IMG/VR virus record: IMGVR_UViG_2690316115_000011
Span: 1-10,655 of that record
Strand: one strand, 5' to 3'
DNA: 10,655 bases
From: a virus
Lineage: Duplodnaviria > Heunggongvirae > Uroviricota > Caudoviricetes
The stretch's first letter is position 1, and each line of letters begins with the position of its first letter. Positions 5,021 through 8,547 of the stretch are shown here, piece after piece. A program made the translations under genes and the position numbers. Under the pieces are notes generated by a model. It ran no database searches. It was not told the origin of the DNA and worked only from the letters and a program-made list of their open reading frames with translations.

Positions 5021-5737
<717 letters not shown>

Positions 5738-5744
5738 TTAAATC

Positions 5745-5808
5745 TATCACCGCAAGGGATAAATATCTAACACCGTGCGTGTTGACTGTTTTACCTCTAG
5801 CGGTGATA
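5745..5808. promoter_or_regulatory. Lambda-type OR3-OR2-OR1 operators with divergent pRM and pR
   Basis: OR3 tatcaccgcaagggata (5745-5761), OR2 taacaccgtgcgtgttg (5768-5784), OR1 tacctctagcggtgata (5792-5808). pR -35 ttgact (5782-5787) and -10 gataat (5803-5808). Confidence 0.9.
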
Positions 5809-5834
5809 ATGGTTGCATGTACTAAGGAGGTTGT

Positions 5835-6035
5835 ATGGAACAACGCATAACCCTGAAAGATTATGCAATACGCTTTGGGCAAACCAAGACGGCTAAAGAT
5901 CTCGGCGTATATCAAAGCGCGATTAACAAGGCCATTCATGCAGGCCGAAAGATTTTTTTAACTATAAACGCTGATGGAAGCGTTTATGCGGAAGAAATAA
6001 AGCCCTTCCCAAGTAACAAAAAAACAACTGCATAA
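5835..6035 (+). CDS. cro: Cro repressor (66 aa), lambda type
   Basis: [64 protein letters not shown] matches lambda Cro from memory. SD AAGGAGG before the ATG. Confidence 0.95.
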
Positions 6036-6042
6036 GTAACAC

Positions 6043-6088
6043 CGCTCTTTTCACAATGGACATTCGTCCTACGTCGCTGACAAAGCGA
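6043..6088 (+). promoter_or_regulatory. nutR: boxA-like CGCTCTTT (6043-6050) and boxB hairpin UCGCU-GACAA-AGCGA (6074-6088)
   Basis: Directly after the cro stop. boxA matches the lambdoid CGCTCTT(A) consensus. boxB has a 5-bp stem and the same GACAA loop as the nutL hairpin. Confidence 0.65.
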
Positions 6089-6173
6089 GTCCCAAGATAT
6101 CTGACCAACTAAGGCCATATGCGTTTCCACGCATACCTTTCAACTAGCTATTCACTATTGGAAATCATAAGAA

Positions 6174-6470
6174 ATGACACAAACAAGTTACAGCAAACTA
6201 TCCCAGCGTGACGTTGATCGCGCAGAAACAGATTTACTCATCAACCTGTCAGCTCTGACGCAAAGGGGACTGGCAAAGATGATTGGCTGCCATGAATCGA
6301 AGGTCAGTCGTACCGACTGGCGATACATCGCGGCGATTTTATGCGCGTTCCAGATGGCATCTGATATCAGTCCGATCAGCCGGGCTTTCCAGCATGCCAT
6401 TAACGTTCATGCAAATAAAAAACGTCCGGTTGGGGCCGGACGTTCTGAGCAAATCCTGATGAATATCTGA
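6174..6470 (+). CDS. cII: CII-like transcriptional activator (98 aa), non-lambda allele
   Basis: Position after cro/nutR. Shares ESKVSRTDWR (lambda KSQISRWKRDW) and C-terminal NKKRP...RSEQI with lambda CII as recalled. Confidence 0.8.
   Translation: MTQTSYSKLSQRDVDRAETDLLINLSALTQRGLAKMIGCHESKVSRTDWRYIAAILCAFQMASDISPISRAFQHAINVHANKKRPVGAGRSEQILMNI
6413..6442 (-). terminator. oop-like antisense RNA terminator within the 3' end of cII
   Basis: Minus strand: 7-bp perfect stem cgtccgg/ccggacg with a 6-nt loop, followed by ttttttattt. Same location as the lambda oop terminator. Confidence 0.55.
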
Positions 6471-6540
6471 TATTCAGGCAGGGCATGGAGCAATACACGG
6501 GAATAATTCTGCCACATCTGGAAGAATTTCGCCAGCAACA

Positions 6541-6690
6541 ACACCAACCGCAGCAGCCTGAAGCCGATTGGGTTAACCCGGAGATACCGGGACCGTCTGT
6601 GAAGATGTGCAGTCACACCAATGTGCAGTCACACCAACCGCAGCAGCCTGAAGCCGATTGGGTTAACCCGGGAGATACCGGGACCGTCTG
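6541..6690 (+). repeat. Two ~60-bp direct repeats (6541-6599 and 6631-6690) with an embedded GGGTTAACCC palindrome; a 16-nt tandem repeat tgtgcagtcacaccaa x2 at 6606-6637
   Basis: acaccaaccgcagcagcctgaagccgattgggttaacccgg(g)agataccgggaccgtctg occurs twice, differing by one inserted g. Confidence 0.85.
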
Positions 6691-6723
6691 CGGTATGGAG
6701 TAAATCTTGTATGCGAGGGGACT

Positions 6724-7800
6724 ATGCGTAATTACGCAACAATTTCACCTCAGTTCTGGTTAGGCGATACAGGGCGAAAACTAAGGAAGTCTGGTCCGGA
6801 ATGTATGGTAGTGGCGTTGTATATGATGACCTCGCCTCATTCCAATATGCTGGGCCTTTATTACCTGCCTGTTTTGTACATTGCTCACGAAACCGGACTT
6901 GCTCCTGAAGGGGCTTCTAAGGGGCTTCAAATGGCTTGCGAGGCTGGTTTTTGCAGCTATGACCATGATTCTGAGGTTGTATGGGTGCATGAAATGGCAG
7001 CATGGCAGGTTGGTGAATCGCTGAAACCTGGCGATAACCGTTGTGCTGGGGTAAGAAATGAATATTCCGCGTTGCTGGAAAATCCTTTTTTATCATCCTT
7101 TTATGATAGATATAAGGATGATTTCCACCTGGATGTCAGACGTGAATCATGTCGGAAAATTGAAGCCCCTTCAGAGCCCCTTTCAAGCCAAGAACAGGAA
7201 CAGGAACAGGAAAGGGATAAAACCCTTCTGGTCCATGGCGAAAAAATCGCCACGGACCCACAGGGGGATTTTTGTCCTGTTCTGACTGAACGTCCAGGAC
7301 CAGCTGGCACGACACCGGAAGCAGATTCCGGGCGTTGTGTGCAGCAGGTGCTGATCGTCGAACCGGAGCAACAACGCCAACCGCAGCAGCCTGAAGCCGA
7401 TTCCGCGATGAGCGGGAAGCCGATTGGGTTAACCCGGGCGATGCCGGGACCGTCTGCGGGACGAGTTGATTATCCTGACGTGTTCGAACGGGTCTGGCGT
7501 GAATATCCGCATCGGGCAGGGTCAAACCCGAAGAAATCCGCGTTCAATGCCTGGAGGGCCAGATTACGCGAAGGGGTGTCACCGGATGTCGTGCTGGATG
7601 GCGTGAGGCGTTACGCAAGATACCTGGAGGCTACCGGGAAAGCGGGAACTGAATTTGTTCAGCAGGCATCGACGTTTTTTGGCCCGAACAGGAATTTCGA
7701 AAATCCGTGGTCGCTGCCGAAGGCTGGCGCAGTCAGCCTGCGTTGCGTGAATCACATTTCTGAACCGGACACCGAAATTCCGCCGGGTTTCAGGGGGTAA
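6724..7800 (+). CDS. Replication initiation protein (O-like, non-lambda; YdaU/replisome-organiser-like by position and motifs), 358 aa
   Basis: ORF track. SD GAGGGG before the ATG. Position after cII and directly upstream of the DnaC-like gene. Low-complexity acidic linker SSQEQEQEQE. Family assignment is from memory. Confidence 0.75.
   Translation: MRNYATISPQFWLGDTGRKLRKSGPECMVVALYMMTSPHSNMLGLYYLPVLYIAHETGLAPEGASKGLQMACEAGFCSYDHDSEVVWVHEMAAWQVGESLKPGDNRCAGVRNEYSALLENPFLSSFYDRYKDDFHLDVRRESCRKIEAPSEPLSSQEQEQEQERDKTLLVHGEKIATDPQGDFCPVLTERPGPAGTTPEADSGRCVQQVLIVEPEQQRQPQQPEADSAMSGKPIGLTRAMPGPSAGRVDYPDVFERVWREYPHRAGSNPKKSAFNAWRARLREGVSPDVVLDGVRRYARYLEATGKAGTEFVQQASTFFGPNRNFENPWSLPKAGAVSLRCVNHISEPDTEIPPGFRG
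7373..7456 (+). repeat. Third, diverged copy of the 60-bp repeat inside the O-like gene, containing a short internal duplication of gaagccgatt
   Basis: acgccaaccgcagcagcctgaagccgatt[ccgcgatgagcgggaagccgatt]gggttaacccgggcgatgccgggaccgtctg; the bracketed 23 nt is absent from the upstream copies. Confidence 0.8.
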
Positions 7801-7806
7801 TCAGCC

Positions 7807-8547
7807 ATGAAAAACATTTCGACTGGAGGGATTCTTGAACGGGTGCGCCGTCTGGCACCACCGCACGTGGCAGCACCGTTCCGGACGACCGACGAATGGC
7901 GGGAATGGCAACTGGCTGAGGGCCGTAAGCGCAGCGAGGAAATTAACCGCCTGAATCATCAGGCGCGGGTTGAAAAAATCCTGAACCGTGCGGGCATCCA
8001 GCCGCTTCACAGGAAGTGCTCATTCGGGAACTACCGGGTGCAGAACGACGGTCAGCGCCATGCTCTGAGCCAGGCGAAATCCATTGTCGATGAATTGATG
8101 ACCGGTTATACAAACTTCGTGTTCAGCGGGAATCCGGGAACCGGAAAAAATCATCTGGCGGCGGCTGTGGGTAATCGTCTGCTGAAGGCCGGTAAATCCG
8201 TGATAGTGGTCACCGTGGCGGATGTGATGAGCGCGTTACATGCCAGCTATGACGACGGACTGTCAGGGGAAAAATTTTTGCGTGAACTGTGCGAAGTGGA
8301 CCTCCTGGTTCTTGACGAAATTGGCATCCAGCGTGAGACGAAAAACGAGCAGGTGGTACTGCACCAGATTGTTGACCGCCGGACGGCATCACTGCGCAGT
8401 GTCGGGATGCTGACAAACCTGAATCATGCCGCAATGAGCACGCTTCTTGGTGAGAGGATTATGGACCGGATGACCATGAACGGTGGTCGTTGGGTGAATT
8501 TTAACTGGGAGAGCTGGCGGTCAAACGTTGGACGTCAGGGTATGTGA
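7807..8547 (+). CDS. DnaC-like replicative helicase loader (AAA+), 246 aa
   Basis: Walker A SGNPGTGKNHLAAAVGNRLL, Walker B DLLVLDEIG, then QIVDRR...GMLTNLN...LGERIMDRM...WVNFNWESWR. Collinear with E. coli DnaC as recalled. Confidence 0.9.
   Translation: MKNISTGGILERVRRLAPPHVAAPFRTTDEWREWQLAEGRKRSEEINRLNHQARVEKILNRAGIQPLHRKCSFGNYRVQNDGQRHALSQAKSIVDELMTGYTNFVFSGNPGTGKNHLAAAVGNRLLKAGKSVIVVTVADVMSALHASYDDGLSGEKFLRELCEVDLLVLDEIGIQRETKNEQVVLHQIVDRRTASLRSVGMLTNLNHAAMSTLLGERIMDRMTMNGGRWVNFNWESWRSNVGRQGM

Follow-up and report, generated by a model that had tools for sequence, protein, structure and literature searches.

In phage lambda, the replication origin consists of four iterons and an AT-rich region inside the initiator gene O. 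In P1 (incC and incA) and F (incB and incC), the control iterons that flank rep are the same short, Rep-bound iterons as those of the origin. Here we describe a locus that resembles each of these arrangements in part. It lies in a 10,655-nucleotide stretch of DNA from a virus of the class Caudoviricetes (IMG/VR record IMGVR_UViG_2690316115_000011; the whole stretch is called the window below), in which repeats of about 60 bp occur upstream of and inside a gene for a putative replication initiator. The original prediction, made from the sequence alone, held that the internal copy may mark the origin and that the upstream copies may be extra initiator-binding sites or, alternatively, a duplication of replication-gene sequence left by recombination. 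Our analysis favours the second of these possibilities: the upstream units are probably a non-functional recombination scar of linker-coding DNA that was amplified in tandem, and the origin probably lies instead at 11-bp iterons elsewhere in the gene.

The locus shares with lambda the gene order cI-cro-cII-(oop)-initiator-loader, homologous oop terminator and pO sequences, an origin that apparently lies inside the initiator gene, and an initiator built of two domains joined by a flexible linker. Unlike lambda, its initiator does not belong to the O family (the protein has no Pfam match) and has a different, predicted winged-helix-like N-terminal domain. The candidate iterons are 11-bp AAGGGGCTTC repeats that form two clusters separated by about 250 bp, and these fall in the sequence encoding the N-terminal domain, not in the linker-coding part. 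A linker-derived array between pO and the initiator gene is also absent from lambda. As in P1 and F, repeats stand on both sides of the segment that codes for the DNA-binding domain of the initiator, but here they are stretches of duplicated coding sequence, 60-113 bp long, without the candidate iteron motif, and they are restricted to one recent lineage. The Rac/Tritos-type replication genes, which occur in a YdaU-like context, likewise combine a linker that contains a homologue of the internal repeat (about 80% identity), a C-terminal domain, a DnaC-like partner and, in the half that encodes the N-terminal domain, a pair of iteron clusters spaced by about 260 bp; they differ in having another N-terminal domain, GTCACG iterons with a 10-bp period, and no upstream linker copies. 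Finally, the array is like the scars and minisatellites of lambdoid mosaic joints in its position at a module boundary, its copy-number polymorphism among genomes that are otherwise nearly identical, its patchy conversion and its repeat-mediated deletion. It is unlike other such scars in that the duplicated piece comes from inside the neighbouring gene, so that recombination between the copies removes exactly the part of the replicon that carries origin specificity.

Anatomy and instability of the repeat array

The predicted repeats are present, as copies A and B upstream of the replication gene and copy C inside it (Table 1). They comprise a 49-nucleotide family (6554-6602, 6645-6693 and 7411-7459, the last two 92% identical) and a 36-nucleotide family (6534-6569, 6624-6659 and 7367-7402, with identities of 89-97%). 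Copies A and B start 90-91 bp apart, and A is 1 nucleotide shorter than B (CCCGGAGATACC versus CCCGGGAGATACC). Blastn comparisons between copies gave E values of 1.6e-15 and 2.9e-12, which excludes chance as the source of the repeats. Every copy contains the palindrome GGGTTAACCC (6570-6579, 6660-6669 and 7426-7435) followed by a CCCGG..CCGGG dyad, as predicted; taken alone, such short palindromes are statistically unremarkable. The 23 extra nucleotides of copy C were also confirmed, at 7403-7425 (CCGCGATGAGCGGGAAGCCGATT, which repeats GAAGCCGATT), but they had been read as an insertion and are better seen as a polymorphic segment that has repeatedly been lost and regained between two GAAGCCGATT repeats. 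The 16-nucleotide tandem repeat is also present, between A and B; its unit, ATGTGCAGTCACACCA, corresponds to Rac-type linker sequence in which GTGCAG is joined to TCACACCAAC by the deletion of 27 nucleotides. At its 5′ end, unit B resembles the Rac-type sequence (EQSHQ) more than it resembles copy C of the window itself.

The units, 60-113 bp in length, have a GC content of 0.60-0.67. Inspection of the unit by eye, with no tool scan made, showed no cII box (TTGC-N6-TTGC), DnaA box or IHF consensus, and a scan of 5700-7900 for promoters and terminators returned only pR-like and oop-terminator-like sites, none of them in the repeats. Neither an Rfam match nor an unusually stable fold marks the block as a known structured RNA: a whole-window Rfam scan gave no match within 6400-7500, the plus-strand fold of the upstream block is ordinary (z = -0.9), and the minus-strand value (z = -2.5) seems to be due largely to the hairpin of the oop terminator and to base pairing of the two units with each other.

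The predicted structure of the replication protein explains what copy C is. An AlphaFold2 model built from a 32-sequence alignment, read by its per-residue confidence score (pLDDT), has a folded N-terminal domain (amino acids 1-142) and a folded C-terminal domain (amino acids 247-335). Between them, over amino acids 143-246, pLDDT falls below 50, and this stretch of about 100 residues is predicted to be a disordered, Pro/Gln-rich inter-domain linker, the end of which is encoded by copy C. Foldseek against the PDB gave weak winged-helix matches only (E ≥ 0.08); the N-terminal domain is described here as winged-helix-like and is not assigned to a family. The two halves of the protein match separate PHROGs (phrog_1701, the match to the gene, is labelled 'DnaD-like helicase loader'). 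By tblastn, Acinetobacter phages and Escherichia phage Fraca match amino acids 1-155 only, Tritos matches amino acids 165-358 only, and many other phages match amino acids 245-358 only. As the N-terminal and C-terminal halves have different homologues, the gene is a mosaic. A full-length homologue of 302 amino acids in Klebsiella phage ST846-OXA48phi9.2 lacks the copy C linker segment, and the Rac/Tritos-type genes, annotated 'replisome organizer', carry a copy C homologue together with their different N-terminal domain. The inheritance of copy C thus follows that of the linker and C-terminal module and not that of the origin-recognition module.

Between positions 7400 and 7450, the window differs from three other loci (L004, L006 and L087) by a compensated frameshift, in which a 23-nucleotide segment replaces one of 24 nucleotides and a 1-nucleotide indel follows about 45 nucleotides further on; homologous linker DNA is thereby read as MSGKPIGLTRAMPG in the window and as IQREADRVVPENTG in Rac-type genes. 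A change of frame between two compensating indels fits a linker under little structural constraint. At the linker start, the copy number of a (GAACAG)n repeat varies among the relatives that were read, with one more QE pair in L001 and L003, and this variation probably explains the 6-bp length steps (1101, 1107 and 1113) among close relatives. The peptide SQEQEQ follows the second iteron cluster in nearly all homologues, and the hexamer repeat may be a DNA element or may merely encode an acidic linker.

To see how the array varies in nature, we surveyed 5426 complete E. coli genomes, phage records and IMG/VR stretches. The upstream block was found in 82 of the genomes, in 36 IMG/VR stretches and in six phage records, which reduce to four distinct phages, as two of them have both a GenBank and a RefSeq accession; the genome and phage copies are all nearly identical. 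Its location is constant across all carriers, whereas its structure is variable. Most loci have two upstream units, and 26 of 34 loci share the same two-copy haplotype, the commonest one. L001 and four viral contigs have a single unit; L003 has three units of 113 bp; and cluster P0001, in which an open reading frame (ORF) across the array reaches 102 amino acids, has three of 90 bp. Extra 16-mers occur in P0002, which has an 88-amino-acid variant of this frame. The 23-nucleotide segment is found in every upstream unit of L003, in unit A but not unit B of L090, and in the only upstream unit of L091; its occurrence in the L003 units identifies it as a presence/absence polymorphism between two GAAGCCGATT repeats, and Rac-type internal linkers have the same polymorphism with 24 nucleotides. 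A GATGCC variant is common to all four copies in L003 and is confined to the internal copy in four other contigs, which suggests occasional homogenisation between copies of the kind that sporadic gene conversion would produce.

The array has also recombined with copy C. In L002, represented by three clonal wastewater isolates (E. coli SW071611, SW071619 and SW07163), the 5′ part of an upstream unit is joined through GGGTTAACCC to the 3′ part of the internal copy. The N-terminal domain and both iteron clusters are gone from this recombinant, and cII is joined to a C-terminal remnant, annotated as a frameshifted pseudogene, which is followed by dnaC. The L002 prophage is presumably replication-dead.

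The distribution of the array is narrow. A close allele of the N-terminal domain (at least 90% nucleotide identity) occurs in 78 E. coli genomes, which is also the number with an intact upstream block. A 74%-identical allele occurs in a further 469 E. coli genomes, including O157:H7, in a YdaS/YdaT context, with a Rac-type linker and without an upstream copy. In 39 further relatives, from Citrobacter, Raoultella, Proteus, Morganella, Acinetobacter, Burkholderiales and others, no 12-mer was common to the upstream region and the gene body, except for GGGGCTT iterons in Acinetobacter. A comparison with related prophages had been suggested as a check on whether the upstream copies are conserved; they are absent from these 39 relatives and from the 469 E. 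coli genomes, all of which have the same N-terminal domain, and copy C is also absent from some relatives. The replication-gene family itself is spread over prophages of E. coli (including O157:H7), Klebsiella, Proteus, Acinetobacter and Burkholderiales and over Shigella Stx phages.

Among 24 aligned loci, nucleotide diversity (pi) is 0.028 in cII, 0.005 in the upstream block, 0.007 in the N-terminal coding part, 0.034 in the linker, 0.015 in copy C, 0.031 in the C-terminal domain and 0.17 in dnaC. The values of 0.005-0.007 in the array and the N-terminal domain indicate one young haplotype block, within which the array is no more uniform than the neighbouring domain. The DnaC-like gene, at 0.17 against 0.007 in the N-terminal part, stands apart in otherwise near-identical prophages, which points to different loader alleles joined to one origin module by recombination in the linker or C-terminal domain.

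Instability, restricted distribution and the L002 deletion thus favour the alternative of a replication-gene duplication left by recombination, and copy-number polymorphism, conversion between copies and a deletion junction, as are typical of such a scar, were all found. The array lies at the joint of a lambda-type cII-oop-pO module with a non-lambda replication module. We propose that a fragment of the replication-gene linker was left where the former recombined onto the latter, and that it was then amplified in tandem by slippage or unequal crossing-over, in a unit of 90 bp or, with the 23-nucleotide segment, 113 bp. The array would now be a hypervariable minisatellite that occasionally swaps short patches with the internal copy by gene conversion, and occasional recombination between the two would delete the N-terminal origin-binding domain and the iterons, leaving a dead prophage. 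The internal copy would be ordinary coding sequence for the Pro/Gln-rich disordered linker. If so, the repeats are an example of how recombination-prone duplications can arise at mosaic joints of lambdoid (Stx-type) phages and then destroy the replicon in some descendants, as in L002. What is at stake in the repeats themselves is modest, and bears on prophage decay.

Several points weigh against this history. It needs at least two illegitimate joins, and no intermediate was found. All members of the close lineage have one or more upstream units, and no zero-copy member was seen, which leaves a slim chance that the array has a modest regulatory role. The 26 of 34 identical two-copy haplotypes could reflect constraint instead of recent common descent, and two copies are carried by each of the four distinct phages of the lineage that have been isolated or induced, so that the array is at least compatible with growth.

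A candidate origin at 11-bp iterons

The premise that a lambdoid origin lies inside its initiator gene seems to hold for this locus, but the candidate is at 6905-7185 and not at copy C. We surveyed the 7-mer AGGGGCT in 45 homologous loci and found 177 occurrences where 13 are expected. These concentrate at two places: 81 at about +185/+196 from the gene start, nearly always forward and in nearly all of the loci, and 83 at about +430 to +500. At the second cluster, relatives differ in orientation (27 loci reverse, 12 forward, 2 mixed), and the flip switches the encoded peptide between EAPSKPL and EGASKGL. A cis-acting site would be expected to persist as a DNA motif even when its orientation and the peptide it encodes change, as happens here, and inversion of cluster 2 would be tolerated because it falls at the first residues of the disordered linker. 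A cluster that can be inverted at the cost of a peptide change would be a clear case of selection at the DNA level overriding protein sequence.

The paired AAGGGGCTTC clusters extend across Gamma- and Betaproteobacteria (L005, L007, L008, L045-L083 and L087-L089), and Acinetobacter prophages have a third cluster just upstream of the start codon. The AAGGGGCTTC repeats have the attributes of origin iterons: they are short and phased, have an AT-rich neighbour and are inherited together with the DNA-binding domain. Most likely, the origin is this pair of clusters with the AT-rich stretch between them, and the winged-helix-like N-terminal domain would be expected to recognise the iterons. In the literature on Eru-type Stx phage replication, on POCJ13 and on the iteron sequence, we found no description of these repeats or iterons. 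For this initiator family, which is widespread and has no Pfam match, the clusters offer a concrete candidate origin that can be tested.

In Rac/Tritos-type genes, the GTCACG repeats form two clusters 260 bp apart (1992-2300 in L004 and 1458-1766 in L006), also in the N-terminal coding half; the layout is that of the AAGGGGCTTC family with another motif. We also considered GAAGCCGATT as an iteron, as 8 of its 10 positions are like the inverted iteron GAAGCCCCTT, and discounted it: the same motif occurs in Tritos-type linkers, which accompany a different N-terminal domain.

Alternative readings of the repeats

Among other explanations, the one that survives best is that the units are auxiliary cis-acting sites, bound by the initiator or by another phage or host protein, whose copies pair or loop across the origin segment and modulate initiation in the manner of the P1 and F control iterons. 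In its favour, none of the 78 close genomes lacks an upstream unit, the commonest haplotype shows high uniformity, each unit has a 10-bp palindrome and a 5-bp dyad, and the copies flank the candidate origin. However, the units contain no AAGGGGCTT motif, and they are GC-rich with no AT-rich element adjoining. Other family members all lack the upstream copies, copy C is missing in some relatives and is common to genes with a different DNA-binding domain, and copy number and internal structure vary freely. The palindrome or the dyad is itself broken in some natural copies (GGGTTATCCC in L040, the L016 unit, and GCGGG in unit 1 of L003), and the Rac-type linker has no palindrome. We regard this reading as unlikely.

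A more specific version is, in our judgement, improbable. Units bound by a factor would pair and loop out the 0.8-kb segment that contains the iterons and the N-terminal domain, acting as a lineage-specific brake or timer of initiation; or excision of that segment by RecA or a phage recombinase would serve as a one-way switch. The factor might be the C-terminal part of the replication protein, the helix-turn-helix proteins DUF1627 or DUF977, or a host protein. If true, the excision switch would turn an inducible Stx-type prophage into a replication-dead resident.

The array could also matter as coding sequence. An ORF of 72 amino acids (ORF72, phrog_2751) had been noted over the upstream repeats, and both the frame and its sharing of QQxQPQQPEAD with copy C were borne out, but a translated product is not supported. 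That ORF72 is a real small protein, or a leader peptide translationally coupled to the replication gene, would fit its annotation in most records, its own PHROG family, the preservation of its frame by 90-bp unit changes (42, 72 and 102 amino acids), and the position of its stop, 20 nucleotides before the replication-gene ATG and overlapping ATGCGTAA in frameshifted variants. Against this, its 5′ part is homologous to non-coding DNA of lambda (the first 50 bp, by alignment), and a Shine-Dalgarno-like AGGG stands merely 1 nucleotide from its ATG. Its C terminus and frame vary: variants of 42, 46, 51, 58, 62, 72, 76, 88 and 102 amino acids occur, with C termini in different frames, and in L003 the frame stops in the first unit and no coding sequence is annotated there. 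In the 5′ part, a hand count gave five substitutions between L003 and the window, each of them non-synonymous. With at least nine length or frame variants, ORF72 has neither the conservation of frame and length nor the excess of synonymous changes of a protein-coding gene, and it has no Pfam or NCBIfam match. A search for a longer protein starting with MEQYTGIILPHLEEF, which could represent an ancestral gene, returned small ORF variants only, and the unique 5′ part had no match in other contexts outside the lineage. Most likely, ORF72 arose by accident as a reading frame that runs through the oop/pO region and the repeats, and we give a functional product very little credence; its listing as a 'hypothetical protein' is relevant to misannotation.

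The idea that the internal copy is or marks the replication origin, with the upstream copies as additional iterons of the same origin, runs contrary to the comparative data and is very improbable. It draws on lambda, whose annotation places the origin in the linker-coding middle of O, and copy C is also in a linker-coding part. Yet an architecture of iterons and AT-rich DNA lies 200-450 bp upstream of copy C and is conserved in nearly all loci of the family. Iterons are short and phased (about 10-22 bp), whereas the units here are 60-113 bp long with a period of 90 or 113 bp and a single, isolated internal copy, which is unlike any iteron array. The nearest AT-rich stretch is the one between the 11-bp clusters and does not adjoin the units, which are also not inherited together with the DNA-binding domain of the initiator. 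The points raised against auxiliary sites apply equally here.

The least probable reading, that the array is kept as portable homology for exchange of replication modules with resident Rac-type prophages, would suit the Rac-like 5′ end of unit B and the frequent recombination to the right of the N-terminal domain that is indicated by the jumps in pi across the linker, C-terminal domain and dnaC (0.03-0.17), but Rac-type and O157-type genes have no upstream copy and so offer no partner for a double crossover, the mosaic boundary is near amino acid 165 and not at the repeat, and the sole recombination product seen at the repeats is a deletion. A related idea, that the repeats bracket a swappable N-terminal cassette, was rejected: the Tritos-type mosaic boundary lies at about amino acid 165, and the low-diversity block spans 6471-7185 and does not run from repeat to repeat.

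Genomic setting and neighbouring features

Table 1. Features of the replication region, with positions in the window
Feature	Position	Strand	Details
cI	5021-5734	minus	local gene order
cro	5835-6035		local gene order
cII	6174-6470		local gene order
oop-type intrinsic terminator hairpin	6419-6446	minus	within cII 3′ end; 11 pairs, then T-run; aligns with lambda oop terminator
Segment homologous to lambda cII-O intergenic region, oop 5′ end, pO and first O codons	6471-6533		aligned to lambda 38564-38769
ORF72 (phrog_2751), 72 amino acids	6485-6703	+	most likely spurious; spans oop/pO region and linker-derived repeats
Copy A, upstream linker-derived unit	6534-6602	+	repeat search, blastn
16-nucleotide tandem repeat, ATGTGCAGTCACACCA x2	6605-6636	+	between A and B
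Copy B, upstream linker-derived unit	6624-6693	+	repeat search, blastn
Replication initiator/organiser gene, 358 amino acids	6724-7800	+	phrog_1701 match
Candidate iteron cluster 1	6908-6929	+	AAGGGGCTTCT AAGGGGCTTCA; 11-bp period; codes EGASKGL
AT-richest stretch of the gene	7050-7139		GC 0.32-0.33; palindrome 7092-7122; candidate unwinding region between clusters
Candidate iteron cluster 2	7162-7182	minus	inverted pair GAAGCCCCTT CAGAGCCCCTT; codes EAPSEPL
(GAACAG)n hexamer repeat	7189-7215	+	codes (QE)n; start of predicted disordered linker; repeat search
Copy C, internal	7367-7459	+	codes amino acids 215-245 (EQQRQPQQPEADSAMSGKPIGLTRAMPGPSAG); end of predicted disordered linker
DnaC-like helicase loader	7807-8547	+	partner of replication protein; profile/database matches

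A 1.1-kb query from the window (6400-7500) matches the chromosome of E. coli ML35 at 100%, and Shigella phages POCJ13 and 75/02 Stx and Escherichia phages PhiR5_2 and phiSTEC1589-Stx1c are 98-99% identical to it. Genes for DUF1627, DUF977 and DUF551 proteins lie 3′ of the DnaC-like loader.

Homology to the oop terminator, the oop 5′ end and pO identifies a lambda-type oop/pO module: the lambda cII 3′ end, oop terminator, oop 5′ end, pO and first O codons align with window positions 6400-6525, and a CTG in the window aligns with the lambda O start ATG. The segment at 6471-6533 is non-coding in lambda, and the ATG of ORF72 (6485) falls within it, in the oop 5′ region. An oop-like antisense RNA module may be encoded on the minus strand at 6413-6525, with homology to the oop 5′ end and pO at about 6485-6525; read by eye, it has a -10-like CAGAAT, aligned with CATAAT of lambda, and a weak -35.

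At the other end of the replication gene, amino acids 335-358 (window 7726-7797, with the ISEPDTEIPPGFRG tail) have a weak NCBIfam match to the C terminus of primosomal protein DnaT (E = 0.009). This tail probably explains the 'primosomal protein I' annotations and could be a shared docking peptide.

Far from the replication region, two sub-threshold Rfam matches lie close together on the minus strand, to DicF (1785-1834; 29 bits against a gathering score of 48) and to STnc100 (1589-1783; 28 bits against 47). Both would fit a DicF-like small RNA locus in the early-left region of the prophage.

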